A stretch of 64,000 bases of DNA from Escherichia phage fEgEco12. The position numbers and the translations under genes were made by a program. Below the pieces are notes generated by a model, which was given only the letters and a program-made list of their open reading frames with translations, ran no database searches and had not been told where the DNA came from. Below, piece by piece: positions 44,667 to 63,148 of the stretch (positions within the stretch are counted from its first letter, which is position 1; every line of letters begins with the position of its first letter). Where the stretch lies: the sequence record PP777464.1, one strand, 5' to 3'.

Positions 44667-44729
44667 TACTTGCACCGTACTGATAAAAGCGTATAATGTT
44701 TTACATCGAGAGCGGGAACACTTCCCGCT
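44667..44729 (+). promoter_or_regulatory. promoter + leader stem-loop module
   Basis: TTGCAC 44670-44675, TATAAT 44692-44697, hairpin AGCGGGAACACTTCCCGCT. Confidence 0.65.
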
Positions 44730-44752
44730 ACACATTAAGAGAGATTAAAACG

Positions 44753-45115
44753 ATGGCGACTCAAATCAATAAAATCATGCTTAACCTGGTAAACTTCCGC
44801 GATGAGATGAAAGGTCTTCCGGCTGAAACTGTAAAAATTCACATTGCAGCTTATCGGGAACTTATTGCAATGTTGCCGCTTAAGCGTGAACAATACGCCG
44901 CTACTTTGATGCTGGATTCAATGATCCATATAATGATCTCAAATGATTTGACGATGGTTTATCAGTATATGGGCGAAAATTTCGCGGTGTGTAGTAAGCC
45001 AGTACCAGGGATGGCAACAACTGAGGAATTGCACGGCTTAAACTTAAAACAAGATGCATGGGATAATATGCCTCGTTTCCTGGTATGGGCTGACAGTGGC
45101 AAAATTTACAAATAA
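44753..45115 (+). CDS. hypothetical protein (120 aa)
   Basis: ATG downstream of the module; track ORF N-terminus is promoter read-through. Confidence 0.55.
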   Translation: MATQINKIMLNLVNFRDEMKGLPAETVKIHIAAYRELIAMLPLKREQYAATLMLDSMIHIMISNDLTMVYQYMGENFAVCSKPVPGMATTEELHGLNLKQDAWDNMPRFLVWADSGKIYK

Positions 45116-45125
45116 GTTTAATAAA

Positions 45126-45188
45126 GTACTTGCAAACTATGTTTAATGGCGTATAATGTTTTACATCAGGTGGGGAATAGTTCCCCCC
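45126..45188 (+). promoter_or_regulatory. promoter + leader stem-loop module
   Basis: TTGCAA 45130-45135, TATAAT 45152-45157, hairpin GGGGAATAGTTCCCC. Confidence 0.65.
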
Positions 45189-45208
45189 TATATAAGAGGA
45201 TTAAAAAA

Positions 45209-45448
45209 ATGGCTAAATCAAAAATGTTCTTAGGTCACAAAAACAAAACTCATTGGAATGTAAGCCTGTGGATTAATAACGATGAGGGATTGTATCGGTT
45301 GGCCCTGGACTTTATTGCCGCCAATACTAATCGCAATGATGCGGCCCGTCATATGATGTTATTTTTAGAACAGACTGGACAAGATAAAACACCGGACGGA
45401 TTCAAATATAGCACTACTGCGATCCGTGCGGCGATGGTTGGAATGTAA
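45209..45448 (+). CDS. hypothetical protein (79 aa)
   Basis: ATG after leader hairpin and AGAGGA RBS. Confidence 0.5.
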   Translation: MAKSKMFLGHKNKTHWNVSLWINNDEGLYRLALDFIAANTNRNDAARHMMLFLEQTGQDKTPDGFKYSTTAIRAAMVGM

Positions 45449-45534
45449 TAGAATTTATTTAAAGTACTATCATTTTTTTGCGATAGTACTTTATAATAGT
45501 GTTTTATTCATACACCAACGATAAGGGCAACAGC

Positions 45535-45801
45535 ATGAATATTAAGTATTTTGCGACGCGTGAACAAGCTCGGATCGCCGCACGCCAGGACGGGGCAACG
45601 TTTAAAGATATGGGCGTACAATCGGAACGTGGTAAACGTTGGGCCATTGTAAAGCGTAGTACCGCCAGATCATTACAGTACTGGTTAGCGGCCTTAAAAA
45701 GTCCCGATAGTGTATCGCGTCGAGTGGTAGAAATAAAGCTCGACCGAAAGGGCAACCGCGTGACCGTGTACCGTACTAAAAAGATTGCAGTACTTGAATA
45801 A
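45535..45801 (+). CDS. hypothetical protein (88 aa), KYFATREQARIAAR family
   Basis: paralog of 57853-58248. Confidence 0.5.
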   Translation: MNIKYFATREQARIAARQDGATFKDMGVQSERGKRWAIVKRSTARSLQYWLAALKSPDSVSRRVVEIKLDRKGNRVTVYRTKKIAVLE

Positions 45802-45804
45802 AAA

Positions 45805-45868
45805 GTACTTGCAAACTATGTTTAAAGGCGTATAATGTTTTACATCGAGAGCGGGAACTCTTCCCGCC
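45805..45868 (+). promoter_or_regulatory. promoter + leader stem-loop module
   Basis: TTGCAA 45809-45814, TATAAT 45831-45836, hairpin GCGGGAACTCTTCCCGC. Confidence 0.65.
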
Positions 45869-45882
45869 TATAACCTGGAGTA

Positions 45883-46119
45883 ATGAAAATGACTAATATG
45901 TATATGACTGAAGTTAAAACCGTAAAAGATACTACCACGAATAAAACTACTTACTTACAGCGGATCTGTGGTGTATGGCAACGTATCAGCAAATCAAAGT
46001 ACTTTAAATTAACATCATATGCAAACCGTTCGGATTCATTCAGTACTGAAATAAAAGGTAATAAAGTACACCAATACGGCACTTATTATTATTATAGCCT
46101 GGACGCGATTGCAGTATAA
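45883..46119 (+). CDS. hypothetical protein (78 aa)
   Basis: ATG after GGAG RBS. Confidence 0.5.
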   Translation: MKMTNMYMTEVKTVKDTTTNKTTYLQRICGVWQRISKSKYFKLTSYANRSDSFSTEIKGNKVHQYGTYYYYSLDAIAV

Positions 46120-46149
46120 GCAGTTTACAAATCTTTACAATTGCCGGTA

Positions 46150-46178
46150 TTGACTTATTTTGTCAGTACTGGCATAAT
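46150..46178 (+). promoter_or_regulatory. orphan promoter TTGACT-17-CATAAT (rightward)
   Basis: TTGACT 46150-46155, CATAAT 46173-46178; no ORF downstream. Confidence 0.5.
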
Positions 46179-46293
46179 GTATTCATTGGCAGATAAGCCG
46201 TAGCCCATAGGGTGCGGGAGTGTATCTATAGAAAAAGTAGTTTATTACAGTTACAATTGTGCACCCGGTGGGTTAGCTGTTGTCATGGGGTAT
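46179..46293. ncRNA. candidate small RNA locus between convergent promoters
   Basis: contains TAGCCCATAGGGTGC (46201-46215) and its near reverse complement (46260-46276); no ORF. Confidence 0.3.
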
Positions 46294-46322
46294 ATTATGC
46301 CAGTACTTGATAATGCTGTCAA
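46294..46322 (-). promoter_or_regulatory. orphan promoter on minus strand (TTGACA-17-CATAAT), convergent with 46150
   Basis: reverse complement of 46294-46322 gives TTGACA and CATAAT boxes. Confidence 0.5.
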
Positions 46323-46364
46323 TACTTTTTTTTACTATTCAGTACTGAAAACTATTTTTAAAAA

Positions 46365-46396
46365 GTACTTGCAAACTATGTTTAAAGGCGTATAAT
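46365..46396 (+). promoter_or_regulatory. promoter (TTGCAA-16-TATAAT) upstream of a structured non-coding element
   Basis: TTGCAA 46369-46374, TATAAT 46391-46396. Confidence 0.6.
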
Positions 46397-46397
46397 G

Positions 46398-46486
46398 TTT
46401 TACATCAGGACGGGGAACGAAATAAGTAACTTCCCGTTAAGTAGCCCAGGAGTAAGGCACACGAAAAACTCCCCTGATAAAATAGT
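46398..46486 (+). ncRNA. candidate small RNA / structured leader (copy 1 of duplicated element)
   Basis: about 85 nt between two promoters, no ORF; near-identical copy at 56652-56738. Confidence 0.35.
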
Positions 46487-46514
46487 TTGACAAATGTTTT
46501 TAAAAGCGTATAAT
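46487..46514 (+). promoter_or_regulatory. promoter TTGACA-16-TATAAT for gene 46547
   Basis: TTGACA 46487-46492, TATAAT 46509-46514. Confidence 0.6.
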
Positions 46515-46546
46515 ACTTACATCAACTACTGAATGAGGGTTACAAA

Positions 46547-47158
46547 ATGAAAACTATCACTACTACTACTTTCGTTATGGATTTTTCTGAATTGAACGCA
46601 GAACAAAAAACGTCAGCTATCGAACTGGTTCGGGAACGTGAAAAAAACTCAAACGACAATTATTTTTCTGAAAGTGAAATTGAATACTATAAAGAAACAG
46701 TACTACCGGAATATGGCATTAATGACGCTGAAATACAATTCAGTGGCTTTTGGTCCCAGGGTGACGGTGCATCAATCAGTACTGACCACGTTGACGCAGT
46801 GAAGTTTTTACGCAAGGTAAGAGCATTAACTAAGTATCGCTCAATCCGTCACTTGCTGAATGAAGATGATTTGGCGATGAGTGTAAAGCGTTCGCACTCC
46901 CACTACTCGCATGAGAATACTGTAAGCGGGTACATTGAATCGGCTTACACTGATTTAACCGCAAAACAAGAAACGTTAGTTAATGAGCTTGAGGAACTAC
47001 TCACTGAAACTATTCGTGAATTATCCCGCAAGTTGTACCGTGATTTAGAGAATGCATATGAGGATCAATTCACTACTGAAAACATTACGGCACTGATTGA
47101 GGGTAACGAGTATCAATTCAATGTTATTGATGGCGTAGTGGAATCAATCGAATATTAA
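46547..47158 (+). CDS. hypothetical acidic protein (203 aa)
   Basis: ATG with GAGGG RBS. Confidence 0.6.
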   Translation: MKTITTTTFVMDFSELNAEQKTSAIELVREREKNSNDNYFSESEIEYYKETVLPEYGINDAEIQFSGFWSQGDGASISTDHVDAVKFLRKVRALTKYRSIRHLLNEDDLAMSVKRSHSHYSHENTVSGYIESAYTDLTAKQETLVNELEELLTETIRELSRKLYRDLENAYEDQFTTENITALIEGNEYQFNVIDGVVESIEY

Positions 47159-47166
47159 TTTAAAAA

Positions 47167-47230
47167 GTACTTGCAAACTAAGTTTAAAAGCGTATAATAC
47201 TTTATATCGAGAGCGGGAATAGTTCCCGCT
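47167..47230 (+). promoter_or_regulatory. promoter + leader stem-loop module
   Basis: TTGCAA 47171-47176, TATAAT 47193-47198, hairpin AGCGGGAATAGTTCCCGCT. Confidence 0.65.
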
Positions 47231-47250
47231 ACTAATGAGGAATACTACAA

Positions 47251-47415
47251 ATGAATACTTTTACCTTCGCTCAATTGAACGCCCTGGATGTATTGTCTGA
47301 TGCTTTGCGGGATGCAACTGAAAGCGGTTTATTTGACAATGTTGACATTCACCCTGATGTAATTAATAATTTTTGTGATGCTATCGCAGAAGTACTGGAA
47401 GATCTAAAAAAATAA
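47251..47415 (+). CDS. hypothetical small acidic protein (54 aa)
   Basis: ATG after module with GAGGAA RBS; below track cutoff. Confidence 0.45.
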   Translation: MNTFTFAQLNALDVLSDALRDATESGLFDNVDIHPDVINNFCDAIAEVLEDLKK

Positions 47416-47421
47416 TAGAAA

Positions 47422-47485
47422 GTACTTGCAATTAGTTTTCAGTACTGTATAATGGTTTACATCAAAGGGAGAAATGGTTCTCCCT
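47422..47485 (+). promoter_or_regulatory. promoter + leader stem-loop module
   Basis: TTGCAA 47426-47431, TATAAT 47448-47453, hairpin GGGAGAAATGGTTCTCCC. Confidence 0.65.
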
Positions 47486-47503
47486 GGTAATGAGGAAAAT
47501 ACA

Positions 47504-47725
47504 ATGGCTAATATCACTACTCTTTCCCAACTGGAAGCACTGGTTAAATCTATGCGGGAACATGCTGACAAAATCGGCGTACAAGATCCAGCCGTTTGCT
47601 TCTGCGACGAATTGAATGATGATACCCTGGTAATAGCAGAAGTCCAGGACGTTTCTAACTATTCCTCGCGTTACACTGGCGGCGTAGCAAATAAAGGTGA
47701 CTTCTGTTTATACCTTACAAAATAA
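47504..47725 (+). CDS. hypothetical protein (73 aa)
   Basis: ATG after GAGGAAA RBS. Confidence 0.5.
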   Translation: MANITTLSQLEALVKSMREHADKIGVQDPAVCFCDELNDDTLVIAEVQDVSNYSSRYTGGVANKGDFCLYLTK

Positions 47726-47728
47726 CAA

Positions 47729-47760
47729 CGCGGGGAGATAATAACTCCCCGTTACTTTTT
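47729..47760 (+). terminator. intrinsic terminator hairpin CGGGGAG..CTCCCCG + T-run
   Basis: 7-bp stem then TTACTTTTT. Confidence 0.6.
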
Positions 47761-47839
47761 CAGTACTGAATCATTTAATAGACGGATCTCGGCACCCGGT
47801 GGGTTAGTGACAGTTTCGTCTTGATGTAATAATTATGCC

Positions 47840-47876
47840 AGTACTGGATGCACTTGTCAACAACTATTTTTTCAAA
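47840..47876 (-). promoter_or_regulatory. orphan minus-strand promoter (TTGACA-17-CATAAT) reading into the 3' end of gene 47504
   Basis: reverse complement gives TTGACAAGTGCATCCAGTACTGGCATAAT; leader carries the TAACCCACCGGGTGC motif. Confidence 0.45.
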
Positions 47877-47890
47877 TACTTTTTATTAAA

Positions 47891-47950
47891 ATACTTGCAA
47901 TTAGTTTTTAAACGCGTATAATGTTTTGCATAGGGGGAGCGGTTCCCCTG
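47891..47950 (+). promoter_or_regulatory. promoter + leader stem-loop module
   Basis: TTGCAA 47895-47900, TATAAT 47917-47922, hairpin GGGGAGCGGTTCCCC. Confidence 0.65.
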
Positions 47951-47969
47951 GTAACTAAGGAATAAGAAA

Positions 47970-48206
47970 ATGCTTGAACAAATCAAATCAACGTCTGCGA
48001 ATGTAACGGGAACGGTAGTACACTTTACTAGTGATGAATCGCGGGGTGTACCCTATTGTGCTGTACATGTAAACACTGAGGGTAACTACTGGTTTACGGT
48101 TTACGGATCATATTCATTTGGACGGCCTGGGCATCAAAAAATTCTGGATAAAGTACAACCAACGGGTAAAAATATCACGGCTGAAATGTTTTATAAAAAA
48201 TCATAA
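47970..48206 (+). CDS. hypothetical protein (78 aa)
   Basis: ATG after AAGGAA RBS. Confidence 0.55.
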   Translation: MLEQIKSTSANVTGTVVHFTSDESRGVPYCAVHVNTEGNYWFTVYGSYSFGRPGHQKILDKVQPTGKNITAEMFYKKS

Positions 48207-48271
48207 AGTACTTGATAATAGTTTTTAGTACTGTATAATATTTTACATCGCAAGGGGGAGCGGTTCCCCCT
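48207..48271 (+). promoter_or_regulatory. promoter + leader stem-loop module
   Basis: CTTGAT -35, TATAAT 48234-48239, hairpin GGGGGAGCGGTTCCCCC. Confidence 0.6.
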
Positions 48272-48290
48272 GGTAACTAAGGATAATCAA

Positions 48291-48590
48291 ATGAAAATTG
48301 CAATCATCGCCCTGGCTTTATCTGTTTCCTCTTTCGCTGTTAATGCGTCATTAGATGTAAGTAGTGAAAAATTCATTCAGTGCACTGTTGCAATGACCGA
48401 TGAAAGAACTGGCGAGATTGTATTAAAGGATTTAGAGATCCAGCCGGAAGCATTTAAAAACGGCCCGTTCCATGAAGAAGACGAAAACGGTAGCACAACA
48501 ATTTATTATGATGCCAGTACTAAACGCGGTTCGGTCACTGTTATGGATACCGAGAAAGTAACTCATACCGGCGTTATTAATTGCCGTTGA
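48291..48590 (+). CDS. putative secreted protein (99 aa)
   Basis: signal-like N-term MKIAIIALALSVSSFAVNA. Confidence 0.55.
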   Translation: MKIAIIALALSVSSFAVNASLDVSSEKFIQCTVAMTDERTGEIVLKDLEIQPEAFKNGPFHEEDENGSTTIYYDASTKRGSVTVMDTEKVTHTGVINCR

Positions 48591-48611
48591 TAGATACTAC
48601 GGGGTAACATC

Positions 48612-48842
48612 ATGACTAAGCGAATTGTTTTACTTAACGAAAGCAGTACTACACAACTACTTAACGCCGTGCATTATGATATTGAAACGAGCGTTAATCT
48701 TATCAGTACTGTAGTTCTGTTGGACACTGGAAAGGTAGCCAATGATAAAGCGATTGCAGGTATACTAACGGATCTTGTGCCTGGTAGCAGTGCACCAATA
48801 ACGTTAAATGGTAAAGTGTTTAATATTTTACTCACTGATTAA
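48612..48842 (+). CDS. hypothetical protein (76 aa)
   Basis: ATG ORF. Confidence 0.5.
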   Translation: MTKRIVLLNESSTTQLLNAVHYDIETSVNLISTVVLLDTGKVANDKAIAGILTDLVPGSSAPITLNGKVFNILLTD

Positions 48843-48847
48843 GTACA

Positions 48848-48870
48848 TAGCCCACCTGGTGGGCTTTTTT
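48848..48870 (+). terminator. intrinsic terminator AGCCCACC/TGGTGGGCT + T6
   Basis: hairpin + TTTTTTG. Confidence 0.7.
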
Positions 48871-48924
48871 GTTTTTGTAGTATCGTAGTACTGAGATACT
48901 TTGAAAATAGTTTTAAAAAAGTAG

Positions 48925-48952
48925 TTGACATTACCACAGAAAAGCGTAGAAT
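48925..48952 (+). promoter_or_regulatory. promoter TTGACA-16-TAGAAT with long structured leader
   Basis: TTGACA 48925-48930; about 120-nt leader resembling the 46398 element. Confidence 0.5.
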
Positions 48953-49075
48953 GTATTACATCAAGACGGGGAGCACTAAGTAGACCGCCAGTAAGTCGAA
49001 CGAAAAACTGGACACGTCGAGAAAACTTTGATACACTAATAAACGTAAACTAAACTTTAATTGAGGATTTATAAA

Positions 49076-49558
49076 ATGGCTAATGTAAAATCATTCATCA
49101 AAGCACTGGTAGCAAATGAAACTAACGTCGCGGCTGAGATCCTGGCTGAACTGGATAACGATACCATGAAAGCGGTACGCAATAATTTTAACATCGCGTA
49201 CAGTACTGCGAAAGAACTACAAGCAAATAAAGCGGCAGAAATTGAAGCGGCAAAGGCGGCCCGTGAAGCAGAACTACAAGCAACAATCGAAAGTATTCAG
49301 GCGGCAGTAGTTGGATTGGATCTGGAAGTAGTTACAGAGATGGCACAAAAAGCCCTGGCGGTTAAGTATGGGGAAGACAAGCCAGAAGTAAAAGCCAAAA
49401 AATGGATTCAGGAACGCGTAGCGGTAGTACTGGACAACGGGGAAGAATATCTGATTCCGGTGCGTGGTAACTGTATTGCGGTAGTACTGGACGCGATTAA
49501 CTCCAGTGGTATGACTCGCGAGGAATGGATCGAAGCTCATCGCAAAGTTGAAGCATAA
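49076..49558 (+). CDS. hypothetical alanine-rich protein (160 aa)
   Basis: ATG after GAGGA RBS; track start 49061 is TTG. Confidence 0.55.
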   Translation: MANVKSFIKALVANETNVAAEILAELDNDTMKAVRNNFNIAYSTAKELQANKAAEIEAAKAAREAELQATIESIQAAVVGLDLEVVTEMAQKALAVKYGEDKPEVKAKKWIQERVAVVLDNGEEYLIPVRGNCIAVVLDAINSSGMTREEWIEAHRKVEA

Positions 49559-49578
49559 CAATTAAAGTACTGAATCAC

Positions 49579-49607
49579 TAGCCCACCTTAAACAGTGGGC
49601 TTTTTTG
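49579..49607 (+). terminator. intrinsic terminator GCCCAC..GTGGGC + T6
   Basis: hairpin + TTTTTTG. Confidence 0.7.
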
Positions 49608-49623
49608 TGTCTATAGTATTCCA

Positions 49624-49720
49624 GGCCACCAGCACCGCCTAGAAACGATTCTAACGCATTAAACTGATTATCTGATGCATCGCCCTAGCTGGTGGCGTTA
49701 AGGTCGTTAGAATGCGATTG
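49624..49720. repeat. interleaved inverted repeats (CCACCAGC/GCTGGTGG and TTCTAACGC/CGTTAGAATGCG)
   Basis: X-Y-X'-Y' arrangement; contains Chi octamer at 49688-49695. Confidence 0.4.
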
Positions 49721-49756
49721 AGAGCGTTTAAAGTATTTTGCAAAAAGTAATAAAAA

Positions 49757-49790
49757 GTACTTGCACGATTAAGAGATTAGCGTATAATTA
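49757..49790 (+). promoter_or_regulatory. promoter TTGCAC-16-TATAAT
   Basis: TTGCAC 49761-49766, TATAAT 49783-49788. Confidence 0.6.
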
Positions 49791-49833
49791 ATTACATCAA
49801 GGCGAGACACCTTAACTAACTGAGGATATAAAG

Positions 49834-49986: not shown

Positions 49987-49994
49987 AAAATAGT

Positions 49995-57852: not shown

Positions 57853-58248
57853 ATGATTACTAAATTCTACGCTACCCGTGAAGCTGCCCGTATTGTTGCA
57901 CGCGAGGAAGGAGCAGCATTTAAAGACATGGGCAAAGATGCAACGAAAGGACAACGCTGGGCCGTACAGTTCAAAGAAATCTCTGATATTGTGAATTCAC
58001 CTGAGCCAGTACTGACAGCAGCAGAACTAAAACGAGCGGATATGCTGGCGGCAATACTTGACGCACAAGATGAGTTTATCGCTGATTCTGATATCAAAGT
58101 ACAGGTAAACCACACCGCATGGACTCACGCGGATCACCTGGCAAACCTTAAGCGTCCAAGTGAACTGATTCGCAACCAGAAAGAGATCCGACATGATCGT
58201 AAGGGTAATCGTGTAACAGTATACAGTAAACGCCGCCAGGTTATCTAA
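57853..58248 (+). CDS. hypothetical protein (131 aa), paralog of 45535-45801
   Basis: shared KFYATREAARI...RKGNRVTVY blocks. Confidence 0.55.
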   Translation: MITKFYATREAARIVAREEGAAFKDMGKDATKGQRWAVQFKEISDIVNSPEPVLTAAELKRADMLAAILDAQDEFIADSDIKVQVNHTAWTHADHLANLKRPSELIRNQKEIRHDRKGNRVTVYSKRRQVI

Positions 58249-58270
58249 TAACTTGCAGTACTAACAACAC

Positions 58271-58295
58271 GGCGGGATCAGTTCCCGCCTTTTTT
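58271..58295 (+). terminator. intrinsic terminator GGCGGGATCAGTTCCCGCC + T6
   Basis: hairpin + TTTTTT. Confidence 0.7.
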
Positions 58296-58309
58296 ATAGG
58301 ACAAACAAA

Positions 58310-58564
58310 ATGATTAAGGTTCAACTATATAAAGATAACATCTTACGGGTACACTATAAAGCACCTCAGAGAATCATCACAAAGGCCGTACAGCTTGCTA
58401 ATGAGTTTATTAATGGTAACCTATTACCTAGGAAGTTAAGCAACGGGAAACTGCGTGTAATCGACGTGGACACTAACAACAGGATAGTAATCGAGAACAC
58501 AGGAAAGATAAACCTTTATGAGCATCAACAATACAATAAGAAAATAAAACTAATATCACGTTGA
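58310..58564 (+). CDS. hypothetical protein (84 aa)
   Basis: ATG ORF. Confidence 0.5.
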   Translation: MIKVQLYKDNILRVHYKAPQRIITKAVQLANEFINGNLLPRKLSNGKLRVIDVDTNNRIVIENTGKINLYEHQQYNKKIKLISR

Positions 58565-58589
58565 CAGTACTCAATTGTTTTAGTACTAT
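58561..58589 (+). promoter_or_regulatory. promoter TTGACA-17-TACTAT
   Basis: TTGACA 58561-58566; duplicated at 58837. Confidence 0.55.
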
Positions 58590-58617
58590 GTACACATACC
58601 AACACGGGAGAAACAAA

Positions 58618-58836
58618 ATGAAATTATCTAAAATCGAAAAGAAAACTATTGATGAAGCAGTTAAGCACGGTTATACCTTTCGTAATGATTCACATTTTAC
58701 CAATTTTCAACAAGGGTATCGTACTATTAAAAAACTAATTGACAAAGGTTTATTAGTTGAAGTCAATAACGGTAACGGTATCGAGTATCAACCAACACAG
58801 GACGCATTTTATTTTAAGAAATATAATATTATCTAA
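58618..58836 (+). CDS. hypothetical protein (72 aa)
   Basis: ATG after GGGAGAAA RBS; track ORF begins at TTG within the promoter. Confidence 0.5.
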   Translation: MKLSKIEKKTIDEAVKHGYTFRNDSHFTNFQQGYRTIKKLIDKGLLVEVNNGNGIEYQPTQDAFYFKKYNII

Positions 58837-58865
58837 TTGACAGTACTCAAATGTTTTAGTACTAT
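58837..58865 (+). promoter_or_regulatory. promoter TTGACA-17-TACTAT (duplicate of 58561)
   Basis: TTGACA 58837-58842. Confidence 0.55.
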
Positions 58866-58893
58866 ATGTACATACCAACACGGGGGAAACAAA

Positions 58894-59136
58894 ATGATTA
58901 CTTTAGAAAAACGTATCAAAGAAACTACATCGCTGGTGGAACTGTTAACAGTACTCAAATGTAAAACAACACCATTCAGCACGCCGGACTTTATTAATAT
59001 GGTTGATGTTAATGGTCGCTATCGTATCACGGTCGAACAAGGAGCGGCGAAAGTATTCAGTACTAAAAACACGAAGGAAGTGATCCACGCCGTTAATGTT
59101 AAAAAAGTAGTTGCCATTGATAGTAAAGTACTGTAA
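58894..59136 (+). CDS. hypothetical protein (80 aa)
   Basis: ATG after GGGGGAAA RBS. Confidence 0.5.
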   Translation: MITLEKRIKETTSLVELLTVLKCKTTPFSTPDFINMVDVNGRYRITVEQGAAKVFSTKNTKEVIHAVNVKKVVAIDSKVL

Positions 59137-59167
59137 TATAGTTTCATTAACTCAAGGAGAACATGCA

Positions 59168-59752
59168 ATGCGTAATTATACTAAATTCATCCGTACACTG
59201 TCAGAAATGGAAACCAACAAAGAGATCCTTTCAGCTTGTCGGTTAGCTGGCCTGGAGATCATCGGTGCTGGTTCTTCCCGTATAGTTTTCGCTTTAAATG
59301 ATCGGTTAGTGATTAAGGTCGCGAATTGTGATGCGGGTGTAGAACAAAATGAAACTGAATGTAAGGTATGGAATTTTTTAGACTATGACCGCCCTCAATT
59401 GAAACAGTACTTTGCAAAGGTGCATATGCATTTATGCGATCCTGATAATATGTTTATCGTTATGGATCGGTTGAGTACTGCAAGCAAAGGCAGTGTGAAG
59501 CACGTAAACGCGTGCAATGAATTAAAGTACAATATTAAACGTAATGCAATCGAACGCCAGCACCGCTTTGCTGATGCACTACAACACGTTGATGATACAT
59601 TATCAACACTAACGATAAGAGATATCAGAAAACAGAATATCGGCCAGGATCGTAATGGACTTATTAAAGTACTTGATTACGGTTTAACCAGCAATATCTG
59701 GAATCAGTACTATAAAAAGCGTGATGTGGCAGCAAGTAAGGTAACACGATAA
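59168..59752 (+). CDS. protein-kinase-like protein (ePK-fold motifs)
   Basis: GAGSSRIV glycine loop, VIKV lysine, IRDIRKQN catalytic-loop-like, DYG (DFG-like). Confidence 0.55.
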   Translation: MRNYTKFIRTLSEMETNKEILSACRLAGLEIIGAGSSRIVFALNDRLVIKVANCDAGVEQNETECKVWNFLDYDRPQLKQYFAKVHMHLCDPDNMFIVMDRLSTASKGSVKHVNACNELKYNIKRNAIERQHRFADALQHVDDTLSTLTIRDIRKQNIGQDRNGLIKVLDYGLTSNIWNQYYKKRDVAASKVTR

Positions 59753-59767
59753 AAAAAGATTAAAAAA

Positions 59768-59800
59768 GGGATTGACTCCGGTCAGTCCCTTTGCTATTAT
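59768..59800 (+). terminator. composite terminator-promoter (GGGATTGACTCCGGTCAGTCCC; -10 TATTAT)
   Basis: same element as 56499 and 62520. Confidence 0.65.
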
Positions 59801-59893
59801 ATATCCATTGAGAGATAACTCACTGACCCATAGGGTGCGGAAGTGTATCTATTATATAAGTATTCAGTACTGAAAACTATTTTTAAAAAAGTA
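59801..59893 (+). ncRNA. candidate short transcript with ACCCATAGGGTGCGGAAGTGTATC motif
   Basis: no ORF before next promoter. Confidence 0.3.
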
Positions 59894-59954
59894 CTTGCAT
59901 TGTACTTAGAATCAAGTATAATGTTTTATATCGAGAGGGGGAATGGTTCTCCCT
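59894..59954 (+). promoter_or_regulatory. promoter + leader stem-loop module
   Basis: TTGCAT 59894-59899, TATAAT 59917-59922, hairpin GGGGGAATGGTTCTCCC. Confidence 0.65.
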
Positions 59955-59973
59955 GGCAATAAGGAATAAAATC

Positions 59974-60195
59974 ATGACTACAATGACTTGCATTTACGCT
60001 TCTAATCTTCTGAATGATGCGGCCTTTAATGTTGATTCAGAATATCAATGTTATCGGGATGAAAATAAAAAAGTTTTTGTAGTTGATAATAATGGTTTCC
60101 ATATTGAATTACAATCCGGCTTCACTGGTGTTGATGGTAAATCAGTATGGGGCGTACAGGATGATAAAGGCACATATCATTTTAAACGTAATTAA
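59974..60195 (+). CDS. hypothetical protein (73 aa)
   Basis: ATG after AAGGAATAAA RBS. Confidence 0.55.
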   Translation: MTTMTCIYASNLLNDAAFNVDSEYQCYRDENKKVFVVDNNGFHIELQSGFTGVDGKSVWGVQDDKGTYHFKRN

Positions 60196-60198
60196 GTA

Positions 60199-60257
60199 TT
60201 GACAAAGTATATCAGTACTGTATAATAGTTTACATCAAGGGGAGAATAGTTCTCCCC
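60199..60257 (+). promoter_or_regulatory. promoter + leader stem-loop module
   Basis: TTGACA 60199-60204, TATAAT 60221-60226, hairpin GGGGAGAATAGTTCTCCCC. Confidence 0.65.
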
Positions 60258-60278
60258 GATACTAAAAGGAATAAAATC

Positions 60279-60683
60279 ATGACTACTACTAATCAAGCTC
60301 GGTCCATCGCCAACGATAAAAATCATGCTGCAATGGTCGCTGGTTACATTGAAGCTATGCAATTCAGTACTGTACACAATGAGAACGGCGATTACCTGGA
60401 AGATTATGAGTTATCTGATGAAGCACGTCAAGCGGCGGTGATTGCATGTTCTCGCTTCATTGAGAAACACGGTAATGATCTGGAAGTAGTTCGCGGTATG
60501 TTTATTGATTACGGTTATGAGCAAGCTGGTCATGATCTGTTCCTTACCCGCGAAGGTCACGGAACTGGTTTTTGGGATCGTGGTTTAGGTCACTATGGCG
60601 ATGTATTCACGAAGTACTGCGAAGAAATCAACGTTTGCGATCCCTATGTAGGCGATGATAATCTAATCTATATGGGCGAATAA
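60279..60683 (+). CDS. hypothetical protein (134 aa)
   Basis: ATG after AAAGGAA RBS. Confidence 0.55.
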   Translation: MTTTNQARSIANDKNHAAMVAGYIEAMQFSTVHNENGDYLEDYELSDEARQAAVIACSRFIEKHGNDLEVVRGMFIDYGYEQAGHDLFLTREGHGTGFWDRGLGHYGDVFTKYCEEINVCDPYVGDDNLIYMGE

Positions 60684-60689
60684 AAGTAT

Positions 60690-60748
60690 TTGACAAAGTA
60701 TATCAGTACTGTATAATAGTTTACATCAAGGGGAGAACTATTCTCCCC
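60690..60748 (+). promoter_or_regulatory. promoter + leader stem-loop module
   Basis: TTGACA 60690-60695, TATAAT 60712-60717, hairpin GGGGAGAACTATTCTCCCC. Confidence 0.65.
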
Positions 60749-60772
60749 ACACCAATAAAAGGAAACAAAATT

Positions 60773-61045
60773 ATGTCCAGCTACTCCGCTACTATGATCA
60801 TTAAAGATATGAACGGTAATCCTACTTCTGCTGGTGGATCATTTGGAAATATTAACTTAGATGGGCGGTTATCCATGCAATCAGCCATCGATACAGCGAA
60901 AGAAGTTTTTAAGAATGAATGTACTGTTAGTAAGCTGGATTATATGGGATTCGCTATCGAGAAAACTACTCGTTTTGTGAACTACAAAAATCCACTGATG
61001 ATTGATACTAACCTGAAAGCTAACGAAGTGGGGTACTTATTATGA
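60773..61045 (+). CDS. hypothetical protein (90 aa)
   Basis: ATG after AAAGGAAA RBS. Confidence 0.55.
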   Translation: MSSYSATMIIKDMNGNPTSAGGSFGNINLDGRLSMQSAIDTAKEVFKNECTVSKLDYMGFAIEKTTRFVNYKNPLMIDTNLKANEVGYLL

Positions 61046-61233
61046 CAGTAGAAGAAGTTAAAAAAGTACTGGCAGTACTACGATATCATAATCATTGCAA
61101 GGTGAAGAATGATCCTGATTATCTTGATTCATCCCTGGAGGAAGACACCTTGAACGCTATAAGCCATATGCAGACATTAGCAAAGCGTATGACTGAAAAG
61201 AACATGCCGGACTATATCGGAAATAAAATTTAA
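61042..61233 (+). CDS. hypothetical protein (63 aa)
   Basis: ATGA overlap. Confidence 0.5.
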   Translation: MTVEEVKKVLAVLRYHNHCKVKNDPDYLDSSLEEDTLNAISHMQTLAKRMTEKNMPDYIGNKI

Positions 61234-61239
61234 AAAGTA

Positions 61240-61302
61240 CTTGCATTGTAGTTAGATTAACGTATAATGTTTTATATCGAGAGGGGGAAATGGTTTCCCC
61301 TC
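61240..61302 (+). promoter_or_regulatory. promoter + leader stem-loop module
   Basis: TTGCAT 61240-61245, TATAAT 61263-61268, hairpin GAGGGGGAAATGGTTTCCCCTC. Confidence 0.65.
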
Positions 61303-61320
61303 AAGTCCAGGAGATACACC

Positions 61321-61584
61321 ATGAACACTATCGAAATCACTATCAATGCACACGTATACGACAACGTAGTACTGCAAACTACTATGACCGCCAATGATAC
61401 CAGTACTTTGCGGAATACTGTTATTAGTGCCGTATGTGCCGCTATCGGTGATGTCGCCCTGGAAAATGCAAAACACGTAAACGATGGTTTCACTATGTGC
61501 AAACGTGATAACGCAAAACATATCATCGTGGAAGGTTACGGCGGTGTAGAATTTAATGTTTATATGAAAAAAGTACTTGCATAA
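61321..61584 (+). CDS. hypothetical protein (87 aa)
   Basis: ATG after CAGGAGA RBS. Confidence 0.55.
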   Translation: MNTIEITINAHVYDNVVLQTTMTANDTSTLRNTVISAVCAAIGDVALENAKHVNDGFTMCKRDNAKHIIVEGYGGVEFNVYMKKVLA

Positions 61585-61632
61585 TAACTAAAACAAAGTA
61601 TAATGTTTTGCATAGGGGGAGATATCCTCCCC
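61577..61632 (+). promoter_or_regulatory. promoter + leader stem-loop module
   Basis: TTGCAT 61577-61582, TATAAT 61599-61604, hairpin GGGGGAGATATCCTCCCCC. Confidence 0.65.
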
Positions 61633-61651
61633 CACTAAAAGGAGTAATAAA

Positions 61652-61876
61652 ATGGCTAACTTTGATGAACTGATGCGGGAAGTAGCTAACCTGGCAGAAG
61701 AGAAGAAATCATTCGATTCTATCTATAACACCGCTCACCGTGATTCAGTACTGGCATGTAACCAGGATCAAAAAGATGAACTAATCGCCACCTATCATGA
61801 AGCATGGAAGTACTACCGACAATGGGAGAAAGAAGAAAGTGAGTCTACCATTGACGGCCTCAATAATCTAATCTAA
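61652..61876 (+). CDS. hypothetical protein (74 aa)
   Basis: ATG after AAGGAG RBS. Confidence 0.55.
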   Translation: MANFDELMREVANLAEEKKSFDSIYNTAHRDSVLACNQDQKDELIATYHEAWKYYRQWEKEESESTIDGLNNLI

Positions 61877-61888
61877 AAGTTTTATTTC

Positions 61889-61924
61889 AGTACTATTGAC
61901 ATAGCTTGATAGTACTGATGTAAT
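61889..61924 (+). promoter_or_regulatory. palindrome-embedded promoter (AGTACTATTGACATAGCTTGATAGTACT)
   Basis: TTGACA 61896-61901; weak -10. Confidence 0.5.
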
Positions 61925-61952
61925 AACTTTACTAACTACAAGGGGAAACATA

Positions 61953-62210
61953 ATGGATCAGTTCACACAATATCGGGTAAATCCACAAGCTATGGCCTAC
62001 GTAGAAGACCATAAAACGTTACCAGTACTGCAACCAGTTAAAGGCCATATCTATCGTGCAATGTCGTGGTGTACGGCCCAGGATGGCTATAAAACCGTAG
62101 CCGTGGGTATGTATTGCGGTGATGGTGAATGGTTTGATCCAAATAATCCGGTAGCCATTGACAGTACTGAAAAAATGAAATGGGCCGACTACATCGAAGA
62201 TATTTCATAA
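61953..62210 (+). CDS. hypothetical protein (85 aa)
   Basis: ATG after AAGGGGAAA RBS. Confidence 0.55.
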   Translation: MDQFTQYRVNPQAMAYVEDHKTLPVLQPVKGHIYRAMSWCTAQDGYKTVAVGMYCGDGEWFDPNNPVAIDSTEKMKWADYIEDIS

Positions 62211-62217
62211 AAACTAT

Positions 62218-62279
62218 TTGACAGTACTAACCAATAATGTATAATGTTTTACATAGAGCGGGGGAATAGTTCTCCCGCC
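62218..62279 (+). promoter_or_regulatory. promoter + leader stem-loop module
   Basis: TTGACA 62218-62223, TATAAT 62240-62245, hairpin GCGGGGGAATAGTTCTCCCGC. Confidence 0.65.
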
Positions 62280-62300
62280 AATAGTTTGGAGTAAAACATT

Positions 62301-62501
62301 ATGTCTATCGCTATCGCCCTGGTTGAAGTACTGAAAGAAGCTAAAGCCAACCAGATCGACGTAAAGATCCAGGAACTACAAAACGGCTTAATCGGCTGTA
62401 CTTGTACCGCTGGTGGAGCGGCAGACTATCGAGAACACGAATCACTCGAATCACTGGTTCGGTATCTTACCATGATCGTTGATGATTGGAGAATCATCTA
62501 A
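62301..62501 (+). CDS. hypothetical protein (66 aa)
   Basis: ATG after TGGAG RBS. Confidence 0.55.
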   Translation: MSIAIALVEVLKEAKANQIDVKIQELQNGLIGCTCTAGGAADYREHESLESLVRYLTMIVDDWRII

Positions 62502-62519
62502 CAAAAAAGAATAAAAAAA

Positions 62520-62552
62520 GGGATTGACTCCGGTCAGTCCCTTTGCTATTAT
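62520..62552 (+). terminator. composite terminator-promoter (GGGATTGACTCCGGTCAGTCCC; -10 TATTAT)
   Basis: third identical right-arm copy. Confidence 0.65.
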
Positions 62553-62660
62553 ATACGCATAGACAAAAACTAGCCCACAGGGTGCATAGGTGTATCCAAA
62601 ATATATAGTTAATAACGGTGAGTAACTATCTGCTGGTGGAACTAAAACTATTAATAAAAA
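62553..62660 (+). ncRNA. candidate short transcript with CTAGCCCACAGGGTGCATAGGTGTATC motif and Chi octamer
   Basis: no ORF; GCTGGTGG 62632-62639. Confidence 0.3.
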
Positions 62661-62664
62661 AGTA

Positions 62665-62692
62665 TTGACAAAGTATATCAGTACTGCAATAA
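62665..62692 (+). promoter_or_regulatory. promoter TTGACA with weak -10 (CAATAAT)
   Basis: TTGACA 62665-62670. Confidence 0.45.
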
Positions 62693-62746
62693 TGTATCTC
62701 GTAGGGCGGCAATGGTGCGACGGCCCACAAAGTTAGGAGATTCACC

Positions 62747-63079
62747 ATGAGTACTTCAATCGCTATCGTTAAAGCTTTCATCCGTACTAATGTTTCCTCT
62801 GTATTCATCGACGGCCTCGACCGTAACGTAGAATACTCAATCATTATCGCACAAACGGCAAACGGTTCTCGGTACATCCTGAATGATAGTGAAGCAAATC
62901 ACTACTACTTCACTAAAGCCACTGGCTTTAAACGCATCGATGCTGATGTAGTATACGCTAAGATGAATAAGCTGGTAGATAAGATTAACGCTAAAGGTAC
63001 TATAGATTTACAGTACTGGACCGAAACCGATCCAGAGTATGGATCTCACCGCTACCTGAATCCAGGTATCAAAATGTAA
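62747..63079 (+). CDS. hypothetical protein (110 aa)
   Basis: ATG after TAGGAGA RBS. Confidence 0.55.
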   Translation: MSTSIAIVKAFIRTNVSSVFIDGLDRNVEYSIIIAQTANGSRYILNDSEANHYYFTKATGFKRIDADVVYAKMNKLVDKINAKGTIDLQYWTETDPEYGSHRYLNPGIKM

Positions 63080-63086
63080 AAAGTAC

Positions 63087-63148
63087 TTGCATAGTACTTA
63101 GATTCATGTATAATGTTTTACATAGAGAGGGGGAAATGGTTCTCCCTC
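63087..63148 (+). promoter_or_regulatory. promoter + leader stem-loop module
   Basis: TTGCAT 63087-63092, TATAAT 63109-63114, hairpin GAGGGGGAAATGGTTCTCCCTC. Confidence 0.65.

Follow-up and report, generated by a model that had tools for sequence, protein, structure and literature searches.

The window analysed here, 64,000 nucleotides of phage DNA, carries a repeated module of about 90 bp in which a strong host-type promoter leads into a hairpin that opens the message, with a ribosome site after it. Comparison of the copies showed, at the level of sequence, that the hairpin is selected as a sense-strand RNA structure and not for its sequence. We consider it probable (about 60%) that the module is a self-contained, plug-and-play immediate-early expression cassette in which the hairpin has a putative role in stabilising or insulating the mRNA.

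Architecture and genomic setting of the module

Each module consists of an A-rich, UP-like tract terminating in AGTAC, a near-consensus -35 (TTGCAA or TTGACA), a 16-17-nt spacer, TATAAT, (G/A)TTTTACATC, a GC hairpin, a Shine-Dalgarno (SD) sequence and ATG. The promoters match the consensus at 12/12 or 10/12 positions. An AT-rich discriminator precedes a conserved CATC start region, and from the spacing and the conserved CA we infer +1 at the A of CATC. The hairpin (17-22 nt in all, with 6-9 bp of stem, a 3-5-nt loop and an energy of about -11 to -16 kcal/mol) starts 8-14 nt past the -10 (median 12), which leaves no room for it before +1 and puts stem onset at about +3 to +7 by the inferred start. 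A purine-rich unstructured spacer carrying the SD separates the stem from the ATG, which lies 15-24 nt past the stem end (median 19). In module 63114 the predicted minimum-energy fold joins the 3' arm to the SD instead.

A covariance model (CM) trained on six module copies recovered 24 canonical modules (44.66-63.17 kb), three variants and one extra copy at E<=0.01, all on the + strand, and its search of the - strand gave zero module matches; the modules are strictly strand-specific. Of 45 strong promoters, 25 have a stem of at least 6 bp no more than 40 nt from the -10; shuffled leaders gave 1.7 on average and never more than 6. The earlier note on this DNA had placed the array at 44667-63148, and these limits are exact, 44667 opening the first copy's AAAGTAC and the last hairpin ending on 63148. 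Its promoter, which is of sigma-70 type, followed by a hairpin inside the opening ~30 nt of the transcript as predicted, was supported, and the four hairpin sequences it quoted were all located in the region (GGGGAGAAATGATTCTCCCC at 50333, 51846, 52075 and 55828; GGGGAATAGTTCCCC at 45171 and 56128; GGGGAAACGGTTCCCC at 57123; GCGGGAACTCTTCCCGC at 45851). Its statement that a module precedes almost every gene was too broad: hairpin modules front about half of the ~50 genes in the region, ~20 more same-family promoters lack the hairpin, and some other genes are translationally coupled. The hairpin-bearing and hairpin-less cassettes, near-identical, number ~45 together. The proposed density of about one module per 450 bp holds for all promoter cassettes (one per ~465 bp) but not for hairpin modules (one per ~700 bp).

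Canonical copies include those at 47414-47503 (gene 47504-47725; hairpin 47466-47485, AGGGAGAAatggTTCTCCCT; CM 85.9 bits), 50281-50369 (gene 50370-50513; hairpin 50333-50352, GGGGAGAAatgaTTCTCCCC, its predicted fold recovered in leader context, z -2.75), 56074-56164 (gene 56165-56338; hairpin 56127-56143, AGGGGAAtagTTCCCCT), 60678-60772 (gene 60773-61045; hairpin 60730-60748, GGGGAGAActaTTCTCCCC), 61565-61651 (gene 61652-61876; hairpin 61615-61633, GGGGGAGatatcCTCCCCC) and, last in the array, 63075-63168 (gene 63169-63570; hairpin 63127-63148, GAGGGGGAAatggTTCTCCCTC). In the three variants the stem is long or odd, and no ORF follows immediately downstream. Two of them combine a promoter with a ~80-nt structured non-coding RNA that replaces the hairpin and ORF, at 46357-46486 (-10 end 46396; CM E 0.0019; 46404-46486 folds at -19.3 kcal/mol, z -2.05) and 56611-56738 (-10 end 56650; 56658-56738 folds at -20.9 kcal/mol, z -3.28). 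The third, at 48913-49060, has a module-type promoter (-10 TAGAAT, end 48952) and a long leader without a clean hairpin (CM E 0.0075), whose fold is no better than shuffles (z 0.49). The extra copy at 13526-13612 (gene 13613-14167; TTGACA-16-TATAAT; hairpin 13575-13595, GGGGATGAacttcTCATCCCC; CM E 2.5e-5) stands alone.

The nearest sequence records to the window are 121Q/PBECO4-like phages, and by sequence it is Asteriusvirus DNA, from a jumbo coliphage of that type. Positions 43008-64000 (+ strand) align over their full length with bases 1-21525 of vB_Ec-M-J, labelled 'Direct Terminal Repeats' there, and so match a direct terminal repeat (DTR) of ~21 kb in a related Asteriusvirus; this segment contains every module except the one at 13.5 kb. 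The DTR of phage Sharanji was put at 20,668 bp by PhageTerm (PMC11895373). What had earlier been called the right arm is this repeat, not recognised as such at the time. It is crowded with small genes, the majority having their own predicted host-RNA-polymerase promoter, and the Klebsiella phages Muenster and fENko-Kae01 have an equivalent layout within their annotated DTRs. A comparable layout of small genes and early promoters is found in the host-takeover gene array of the SPO1 terminal redundancy; to our knowledge, no stereotyped leader hairpin has been described in that array or in those of T5/BF23 and PA5oct. T5/BF23 (PMC10644984) and the PA5oct DTR (PMC7318152) likewise combine a long terminal repeat, many small genes of unknown function and strong host-type early promoters on each or most of these first-expressed genes; compared to these three host-takeover or pre-early systems, early timing in our array is putative. 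In PA5oct, a distant relative, many DTR genes are strongly transcribed early and the phage uses host RNA polymerase (PMC7318152), and in the CBB paper RpoD-like promoters and UP-like elements were predicted upstream of short early genes (PMC5259590).

Conservation of the hairpin as RNA

In the stem alignment 97.6% of cells pair compared to 84.4% in shuffles (0/500), double changes occur at 8/8 stem pairs (119 double-change cells vs 18.5), and the covariation score is 0.448 vs 0.209, with slid controls at or below 0.10; the alignment had been fitted to the structure in the model, and its sequences are mutually related. G·U pairs outnumber A·C by 44:1 with a finder allowing G·U and by 25:9 with a symmetric finder (p=0.009); where A·C does occur, it lies in outer stem extensions. 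G·U pairs are present in the modules at 47883-47969 (gene 47970-48206; hairpin 47931-47950 with two such pairs, starting just 8 nt past the -10), 48200-48290 (gene 48291-48590; hairpin 48253-48271, AGGGGGAGcggTTCCCCCT, one pair), 59883-59973 (gene 59974-60195; hairpin 59936-59954, one pair) and 62206-62300 (gene 62301-62501; hairpin 62258-62278, one pair, with an additional C->T giving G·U in G17).

Among orthologs the loops vary (ATGA/ATGG/TAG), and the stems are altered via G·U or swapped for other perfect stems. The loop is CTC or CAC in orthologs of the module at 45797-45882 (gene 45883-46119; hairpin 45851-45867, GCGGGAActcTTCCCGC) and TAG or TGG in those of 57338-57433 (gene 57434-57757; hairpin 57392-57410). 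At 52615-52705 (gene 52706-53047; hairpin 52668-52686, AGGGGAAAcggTTTCCCCT) the 121Q ortholog has a C->T change that gives G·U; at 53050-53143 (gene 53144-53356; hairpin 53102-53121) UE-S1 has another perfect stem, GGGAAGTA/TACTTCCC; and at 61229-61320 (gene 61321-61584; hairpin 61281-61302) G17 has a different stem, yet the SD and gene are unchanged. A single T·C mismatch in the hairpin at 45168-45189 is not present in relatives. Klebsiella phage stems keep the position with unrelated sequences (e.g. GGGGATACA, GGAGATTCCA and GGGAATGAA), and loops reach 7 nt in relatives. The comparison of stem covariation with loop variability that had been proposed earlier thus gave stems kept by compensatory and G·U changes, and variable loops.

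Gene gain, loss and exchange at the modules

Set against five relatives, the region showed 24 junction events. Of their 48 endpoints, 20 fall in hairpin modules (11% of region length) and 11 in the remaining promoter cassettes (9%). A duplicated module of 42-102 bp flanks eleven of the events. The genome comparison shows, from sequence, repeated module copies as sites of gene gain, loss and swap among close relatives, in line with the earlier note's view that module-flanked genes vary in presence and absence; since the indels are flanked by duplicated modules, its idea of modular gene shuffling also holds. Disrupted genes would be selected against and breakpoints between genes are expected anyway, so that endpoint enrichment alone is not proof of module-mediated recombination; the duplicated flanks are the stronger argument. 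The ~45 cassettes, with or without a hairpin, supply homology for insertion, deletion or exchange of single-gene units of 220-400 bp among related phages. This is the role proposed for the PeSL cassettes of T4-type phages, from which the module differs in architecture.

The gene behind the module at 47159-47250 (gene 47251-47415; hairpin 47212-47230, AGCGGGAAtagTTCCCGCT) is swapped for another in 5/5 relatives, with junctions at 47230-47241 and 47407-47409. Cassettes are missing at 51865-52022 in 121Q (module 51794-51884, gene 51885-52031, hairpin 51846-51865; 71-bp module overlap at the junction), at 57170-57338 in 121Q and UE-S1 (module 57067-57163, gene 57164-57346, hairpin 57121-57140, GAGGGGAAacggTTCCCCTC; overlap 102 bp) and at 60290-60684 in three relatives (module 60187-60278, gene 60279-60683, hairpin 60239-60257; overlap 98 bp). 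At the module with the top CM score, 94 bits (52023-52112; gene 52113-52265; hairpin 52075-52094), WPEC5 has a 282-bp insertion flanked by the 58-bp repeat 52025-52083. A vB_Ec-M-J indel junction at 45125-45204 lies inside the module at 45118-45208 (gene 45209-45448; -35 45130, -10 45152-45157). The gene at 55242-55430, preceded here by a module with a 17-nt spacer and TATAGT (55155-55241; hairpin 55206-55224), stands behind another module in vB_Ec-M-J and 121Q. Relatives lack gene 55458-55781, upstream of the module at 55776-55864 (gene 55865-56077; hairpin 55828-55847), or have another in its place, and a junction lies at 55776-55803.

Candidate roles of the leader hairpin

No T-run was found 3' of the module hairpins, whose 3' flanks are ACTAA, GGTAA or CCTAA, and no module hairpin is among the + strand terminator-like sites. 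Together with onset after the predicted +1, the missing T-run makes the hairpin part of the 5' UTR in its own promoter's transcript. The GC-rich stem, G-rich in the 5' arm and C-rich in the 3' arm, recurs in Rho-independent terminators and in T4 CUUCGG hairpins, likewise intergenic in a large virulent phage, but module hairpins have neither a U-tract nor a UUCG loop. The earlier note had equated the module with T4-type PeSLs. PeSL cassettes (RB49/phi1, PST/T4, nt-1/KVP40) are also repeated intergenic units of ~70-100 bp (PMC2839356, PMC4122927), that combine a strong, sigma-70-like early promoter and the AT-rich tract upstream of it with a GGGG...CCCC stem-loop and an SD; they cluster among small ORFans and contain indel/replacement junctions of close relatives. 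The PeSL papers, however, put the stem-loop upstream of the transcription start, overlapping it or only just before it, and describe it as a terminator or attenuator of upstream transcription (PMC2839356, PMC4122927), whereas that of the module lies within the transcribed leader and has RNA-specific G·U tolerance; on position and the missing T-run, identity with the T4-type PeSL terminator was rejected. The phage that hosts the array also differs, a Rak2-like jumbo phage whose terminal repeat is filled by it.

A PeSL-type attenuator, mainly stopping or damping read-through from the upstream cassette and so insulating each gene, is quite improbable. PeSL stem-loops are likewise GGGG...CCCC, one of them cut reporter read-through about as much as rrnB T1 (PMC2839356), and same-direction promoters here follow every ~465 bp with few canonical terminators between. 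All module hairpins nevertheless lack a T-run, and from its place past the predicted +1 the hairpin would damp its own promoter equally. Module 1, the first promoter of the array (44658-44752; gene 44753-45115; -35 TTGCAC at 44670, -10 TATAAT at 44692-44697), has a hairpin (44711-44729, AGCGGGAAcacTTCCCGCT) although no + strand gene precedes it in the repeat, and true T-run terminators and terminator/promoter composites are present elsewhere in the region.

An RNA recognition site for a phage or host factor (RegB-like endoribonuclease, translational repressor or N/boxB-like antiterminator) that switches the immediate-early regulon jointly is unlikely, though less so. About 25 copies share one fixed leader position and the 5' arm has recurrent GGGGAG/GGAG; T4 RegB cuts early mRNAs at GGAG, and the lambda N protein binds a hairpin close to the early-transcript 5' end. 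Like the module, the lambda nut site places a short GC hairpin close to the 5' end of early transcripts that arise from strong sigma-70 promoters, but the pentaloop of boxB is conserved, GNRA-like and read by N protein, and boxB has a boxA partner, whereas module loops vary freely, even among orthologs, and no boxA-like motif was found in the leaders. The phage's own stems are not all alike, and those of the Klebsiella relatives are unrelated; with conservation limited to shape and position, recognition would have to be by shape only. Least probable of all is a DNA-level element, in which the inverted repeat would serve as the operator of a dimeric repressor bound at +5 to +25, or else as a cruciform or a recombination signal. 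A perfect inverted repeat just past a promoter is in the classic operator position, indel junctions are located in modules, and the PeSL authors speculated on a stem-loop-specific recombination protein. Against this, G·T is commoner than A·C, as expected only when one strand folds, and a half-site gap of 3-5 nt (up to 7 in relatives) and half-sites that change in sequence while complementarity is kept fit an operator poorly. Hairpin-less cassettes are about equally frequent junctions per base (11/48 endpoints, 9% of length), so that homology alone is enough.

In the preferred reading, an expression cassette for small, putatively early genes, the hairpin would serve in its own transcript as a 5'-proximal structural cap slowing 5'-end-dependent decay. 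A role in its own transcript is favoured by the strict strand-specificity of the modules and by the presence of the hairpin in module 1. Every cargo ORF would be given one autonomously folded leader, and this uniformity may keep the SD free regardless of the downstream gene; in read-through transcripts the hairpin could be a 3'-exonuclease barrier protecting the upstream message. The E. coli ompA 5' UTR has a 5'-terminal stabiliser stem-loop, with structure over sequence, before an unstructured SD region, and for E. coli 5'-terminal stem-loops a tail of 3-7 nt is at or past the best-protecting length. The T4 gene 32 leader (PMC8948821) is similar, with a stable hairpin near the 5' end, structure over sequence and an unstructured SD region after it. 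Both are single genes with demonstrated half-life effects, whereas the module reuses a stereotyped hairpin ~25 times, and its predicted 5' tail (3-7 nt from the inferred +1) is at or above the optimum. With ~20 same-family promoters lacking it, the hairpin is dispensable for expression as such. A separate PeSL-like cassette class, with a terminator hairpin embedding the -35 (e.g. 11081-11117), is also present in the window; the C(UUCG)G hairpins of the window are part of this class and not of the hairpin modules, and the two had not been set apart earlier.

Promoter–hairpin modules in the terminal repeat

The stretch at 44.6-54.0 kb matched 127 phage records, the best of which were Asteriusvirus jumbo phages of Escherichia (WPEC5, 98%; vB_Ec-M-J, 96%; 121Q, 88.6%); coverage by the matching records was patchy throughout, at 36-77% in 4-15 pieces. 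In vB_Ec-M-J the matching stretch falls within a direct terminal repeat (DTR), annotated at the left end of the genome with a length of 21,525 bp, and bases 1-21525 of that phage align with 43008-64000, up to the last base of the window. The right arm of the earlier note therefore corresponds to this terminal repeat. The size of the DTR agrees among independent records: 20,668 bp in Sharanji by PhageTerm (PMC11895373), 22,456 bp in CBB (PMC5259590), 20,030 bp in the record of Klebsiella phage Muenster and 19,736 bp in that of fENko-Kae01.

We located the modules by three concordant routes: one scan looked for the -10 with its downstream block, another for promoters in general, and the third route was a hairpin finder. 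They recovered 24 canonical modules, all on the + strand and all lying within 44,658-63,168. A module starts with an A-run ending in AGTAC, followed by TTGCAA or TTGACA, a spacer of 16 nt (17 nt in a single copy; ending in cAGTACTg in roughly 10 of the 24) and TATAAT. Downstream are GTTTTACATC or AGTTTACATC, 2-4 nt, a 6-9-bp stem with a G-rich 5' arm and a loop of 3-5 nt, and then about 19 nt with a purine-rich Shine-Dalgarno sequence (SD) ahead of the ATG. The spacing is narrow, at 8-14 nt from the -10 to the stem and 15-24 nt from the stem end to the ATG. One more canonical module lies outside the repeat at 13526-13612; 24 of the 25 copies are thus inside the 21-kb repeat, among genes of 47-134 aa. 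Three variant copies of the promoter (-10 ends at 46396, 48952 and 56650) lead into longer or irregular structures without an ORF immediately 3' of them.

A covariance model from six gap-free seed copies, with model-guided alignment, recovered all copies (canonical, variants and 13526-13612) at E ≤ 0.01 and gave no match on the - strand at that threshold. The model replaced a MAFFT alignment of the 25 modules, rejected as a basis for covariation because the stems were misaligned and RNAalifold recovered only 5 pairs. A stem of at least 6 bp was found within 40 nt of the -10 at 25 of 45 strong promoters, compared to a mean of 1.7 and a maximum of 6 with shuffled leaders. An Rfam scan of 42-64 kb at E ≤ 1 returned two sub-threshold chance matches only and no curated family.

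These results confirm the modules of the earlier note, and its count and quoted examples are essentially right, but its statement that the module precedes almost every gene was too broad: the hairpin module precedes about half of the approximately 50 repeat genes. Some 20 others have the same promoter family without the hairpin, many with a stereotyped leader, ACATCAACTACTGA, and a few genes are translationally coupled. Almost none of the 47-134-aa genes has a known function, and comparison of the cassette proteins with Pfam and PHROGs yielded a DksA/TraR zinc finger, a GNAT acetyltransferase, a weak kinase match and nothing else. A hairpin-less stereotyped leader, (A/T)CATCAACTACTG(A/G), located directly 5' of the SD, is common to several promoter classes (-10 ends at 46514, 50023 and 56766, and at 4480, 11117 and 16322 in the left arm).

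The predicted promoters of the terminal repeat form a near-consensus, host-type array. Their A-run with GTAC resembles the proximal UP-element subsite (AAAAAARNR). We infer that the repeat genes are immediate-early genes read by the host RNA polymerase, based on general knowledge and on the relatives PA5oct, where many DTR genes are highly transcribed early and the phage relies on the host polymerase (PMC7318152), and CBB, which has predicted RpoD-like promoters with UP-like elements (PMC5259590). Our literature search found no account of how the approximately 50 terminal-repeat genes are controlled, the papers searched on this group do not describe the leader hairpin, and those on RaK2 and phAPEC6 gave no description of promoters.

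Position and conservation of the leader hairpin

Our search of the literature on Asteriusvirus and Alcyoneusvirus transcriptomes found no mapped transcription start for this phage group. A conserved CATC follows the -10 by 6-10 nt in all promoter classes of the phage, and we place the putative +1 at its A, a usual pyrimidine/purine start 7-8 nt from the -10. With this start the predicted transcript would read AUC(A/G)A and then enter the stem, leaving 3-7 unpaired 5' nucleotides. The 17-22-nt hairpin, whose stem starts 8-14 nt past the -10, would reach to about +25; as a plausible start leaves no room for 17-22 nt on the -10 side, the hairpin is assigned to the 5' UTR. Whole-leader folds of three modules gave the hairpin with the SD open in two cases; in the minimum-energy fold of the third, at 63114, the SD is bound by part of the 3' arm. 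The possibility that the C-rich 3' arm is a releasable anti-SD that silences translation was rejected, because its complementarity to each module's own SD was inconsistent in the leaders we read.

None of the modules has a T-run after the hairpin; the 3' flanks are ACTAA, GGTAA or CCTAA. The + strand terminator scan listed none of the 24 module hairpins, though it picked up about 10 real terminators in the repeat. An intrinsic terminator was rejected on both grounds, the missing U-tract directly 3' of the stem and the absence from the terminator list.

Covariation was evaluated on a model-guided alignment with 108 distinct rows, drawn from 150 matches in the window and in seven related loci. 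Because the rows are related sequences that were aligned to fit the structure, the resulting figures are generous: standard pairs filled 97.6% of stem cells, compared to 84.4% with the 3' partners shuffled, and 0 of 500 shuffles reached the observed level; changes on both sides occurred at all 8 stem pairs; 119 double-change cells were observed where 18.5 were expected; and the covariation score was 0.448 versus 0.209, falling to 0.10 or less when the partner was slid by 1-3 columns. Further evidence points the same way. In orthologs anchored on the downstream gene, the loops vary freely (ATGA/ATGG/AATGG/TAG, CAC/CTC, TAG/TGG). The ortholog stems change to G·U (from A-U at 52062 in 121Q and from G-C at 52654 and 62245) or by a full swap to another perfect stem, for example GGGAAGTA/TACTTCCC in UE-S1. 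The comparison of modules called for in the earlier note has produced covarying stems and variable loops.

The 73 distinct hairpins contain 44 G·U pairs and 1 A·C juxtaposition, a count biased toward G·U by a finder that accepts it as a pair. A finder treating G·U and A·C alike gave 25:9 (p = 0.009) after trimming, with the A·C cases in doubtful outer extensions; the untrimmed count of 38:24 included loop-closing pseudo-pairs. Since a + strand G·T pair corresponds to an A·C mismatch in the complementary strand, the G·U bias means that it is the + strand, the mRNA, that folds. The Klebsiella phages Muenster and fENko-Kae01 retain the promoter, the hairpin position and the SD spacing with stems of other sequence (GGGGATACA/TGTATCCCC, GGAGATTCCA/TGGAATCTCC, GGGAATGAA/TTCATTCCC and GGGGGAA/TTCCCCC). 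What is conserved in the hairpin is its structure and not its sequence, and the comparisons show structural selection on the leader hairpin as RNA, at a fixed distance from the promoter and from the SD. CMSTMSU (MH494197) was left out because of homopolymer deletions in G-runs; the record has systematic single-base deletions in the hairpin G-runs and sparse gene calls, and looks error-prone and unfit for fine comparisons.

Our best account is that the hairpin would serve the transcript in which it lies, as a cap and insulator close to the 5' end. A role in its own transcript is favored because the first promoter of the array has a hairpin without any + strand gene upstream in the repeat. As a cap the hairpin would slow 5'-end-dependent decay, and an autonomously folded, constant leader before an open SD would allow strong expression of any cargo ORF placed between two cassettes; in read-through RNAs the hairpin could double as a barrier to 3' exonucleases. 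The module hairpin is like the ompA and T4 gene 32 stabilizers in that structure rather than sequence is conserved; those hairpins lie at or within a few nucleotides of the 5' end, and the predicted tail before the module hairpin is 3-7 nt. The main weakness of the cap account is this predicted 5' tail, as in E. coli 3-7 nt is at or beyond the optimum for hairpin protection.

Three other explanations are less consistent with the sequence evidence but retain some probability. For an attenuator of read-through from upstream, the lack of a T-run and of any terminator call argues against it, as does the hairpin at the head of the array. The hairpin might instead be a handle for a shape-specific protein or nuclease that brings about coordinated shut-off, a role for which shape would count; a conserved loop of the kind read by an N-like protein in lambda boxB, where it is accompanied by boxA, is missing from the modules, whose loops (ATGA, ATGG, TAG, TGG, CGG, CAC, CTC, AAAC, ACATC and ATATC among them) differ between orthologs. 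An inverted repeat could also be a DNA operator or form a cruciform; the unrelated stems of the Klebsiella phages, the pattern of G·U bias and the variable gap between the arms speak against an operator.

Relation to early stem-loop cassettes and gene turnover

The earlier note had likened the modules to the promoter-early stem-loop cassettes (PeSLs) of T4-type phages, which combine a strong early promoter with a stem-loop that acts as a terminator or attenuator for upstream transcription (Arbiol et al., Comeau et al.). The modules share with them a strong sigma-70-like early promoter, an AT-rich upstream tract (the A-run) and the SD and ATG that follow, as well as concentration in a plastic region of small ORFans (24 of 25 copies in the repeat) and insertion, deletion or replacement crossovers between close relatives that fall in modules, with the cassette flanked by two copies. 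However, the PeSL stem-loop is upstream of, within or just before the promoter start, whereas the module stem lies in its own transcript, given the putative +1, and the terminator or attenuator function of the PeSL is one that the module sequence argues against. The likeness fails on position and on terminator features, and judged by their sequence the modules should not be filed as PeSLs.

A second stereotyped cassette in the window fits the PeSL layout well: AAAAGGGTTGAC-TTCG-GTCAGCCCTTTTTGC-TATAAT. In this cassette the -35 (TTGACT) lies inside a terminator-like hairpin, whose loop is C(UUCG)G or C(UCCG)G and whose T-run continues into TATAAT or TATTAT. Four copies precede genes in the left arm (8037-8074, 11081-11117, 15701-15739 and 16287-16322) and four lie in the repeat (52495-52533, 56494-56531, 59762-59800 and 62513-62552). 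The G17 and UE-S1 records annotate these cassettes merely as terminators.

Comparison with related genomes supports the gene shuffling proposed in the earlier note, as turnover bounded by cassettes. Chained BLAST matches of the window repeat with five related repeats gave 24 distinct junction events. Hairpin modules, 11% of the region, hold 20 of the 48 endpoints and other promoter cassettes, 9% of the region, hold 11, so that all promoter cassettes together account for 31 of 48 in 20% of the length; this enrichment alone is no proof, because selection for intact genes pushes breakpoints into intergenic DNA. Several endpoints scored as elsewhere sit just a few bases into the start codon region. 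Duplicated-module flanks are stronger evidence for cassette recombination: in 11 events a 220-400-bp single-gene insert stands against one cassette, with a 42-102-bp overlap that is the module (for example at 45125-45204, 52025-52083 and 60290-60684). In addition, a given gene may have different modules in different phages, as at 55195, 61268 and 53089. The likely agent is homology and not the hairpin, since hairpin-less cassettes serve as junctions about as often per base.

We regard the element, located in the terminal repeat of Rak2-like jumbo phages, as a repeated early regulatory cassette with a PeSL-like role in evolution and a likely ompA- or gene-32-like role in the RNA. This reading extends the idea of regulatory cassettes as gene-shuffling linkers past the T4-type phages to a different architecture, and explains the mosaic repeat between otherwise near-identical phages. 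Rak2/121Q jumbo phages have been isolated for therapy, and almost all of their approximately 50 small repeat genes are without known function; the cassette provides a rule for locating putative immediate-early genes, with their starts, in these phages and their relatives, and candidates for host takeover or anti-defence might be sought there. A further use may be as a promoter/5'-UTR part for E. coli that is strong, compact and naturally insulated, and of which about 70 natural stem variants exist.

AGTACT, distribution and other elements of the repeat

The most surprising side result is a genome-wide excess of AGTACT. It is the commonest hexamer of the window (290 copies, 21.6 expected), 10-fold in excess in 1-43007 and 20-fold in the terminal repeat, and ranges from 10- to 20-fold genome-wide in three Rak2-like lineages. 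It is also the top hexamer in 121Q, Muenster, fENko-Kae01 and two IMG/VR jumbo contigs; phage muut, in contrast, shows a depletion. Copies within long ORFs fall in every one of the three codon phases, and those in promoters occupy two fixed sites about 21 bp apart, one overlapping the -35 edge and one directly before the -10 (for example 47419-47424 and 47441-47446). No mention of AGTACT over-representation was found in the literature searched. A bolder proposal, which we consider rather unlikely, is that the cassette is half of a clade-specific regulatory code: the AGTACT palindromes would be operators, bound by a protein of the phage or the host that marks the phage chromosome as well, the shape-conserved hairpin would be the handle of a post-transcriptional factor, and together they would time the burst and shut-off of the entire immediate-early regulon.

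Asteriusvirus, Alcyoneusvirus and fENko-Kae01 all have the module architecture in their repeats. Muut, an unrelated 146-kb, phAPEC8-like phage (Justusliebigvirus), has four similar promoter-hairpin-SD units, three of them looser. The fourth, at 12011-12080 of the muut locus, is near-identical to the Asteriusvirus type, including AGTACTG-TATAAT-AGTTTACATC, and carries one of the only two AGTACT sites of that locus; its sequence points to transfer of the cassette across genera of phages. With the exact motif, a scan of IMG/VR recovered only 18 stretches, mostly 121Q with a few contigs of about 310-480 kb, and the distribution is therefore narrow at that stringency.

The repeat also contains nine copies of a conserved non-coding element, CCCAC(A/C)GGGTGC-N6-GTATCTAT, about 25 nt 3' of its own promoter (+ strand, 46204, 52560, 54218, 56553, 59827 and 62574; - strand, 47803, 46272 and 44117). 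Copies occur in Muenster and fENko-Kae01 as well. The element matched nothing in Rfam and gave no convincing fold; it may be a small-RNA family or a protein-binding site, and two highly transcribed ncRNAs are known from the PA5oct DTR (PMC7318152). A structured non-coding RNA of about 80 nt, closed by AUCAGG...CCUGAU, is predicted at 46404-46486 and 56658-56738 (z -2.1 and -3.3); both copies have a module-type promoter on the 5' side and another promoter at once on the 3' side.

The first 1.6 kb or so of the repeat (43008-44660), possibly a terminus or origin region, is non-coding; it has promoters on both strands and short direct repeats, with gattSagtactgaataatagtactcctatatagaaaga present twice, at 44541-44578 and at 44600-44637. 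Just before the repeat, at 41903-42705, is a tight array of genes of about 60-70 aa whose stops and starts overlap and which lack intervening promoters. The array also occurs in the homologous stretches of loci L002-L004, and the annotations of 121Q and WPEC5 list about 20 genes of this kind. Beyond it, on the opposite strand, lie RCC1-like 'DNA condensation' genes.
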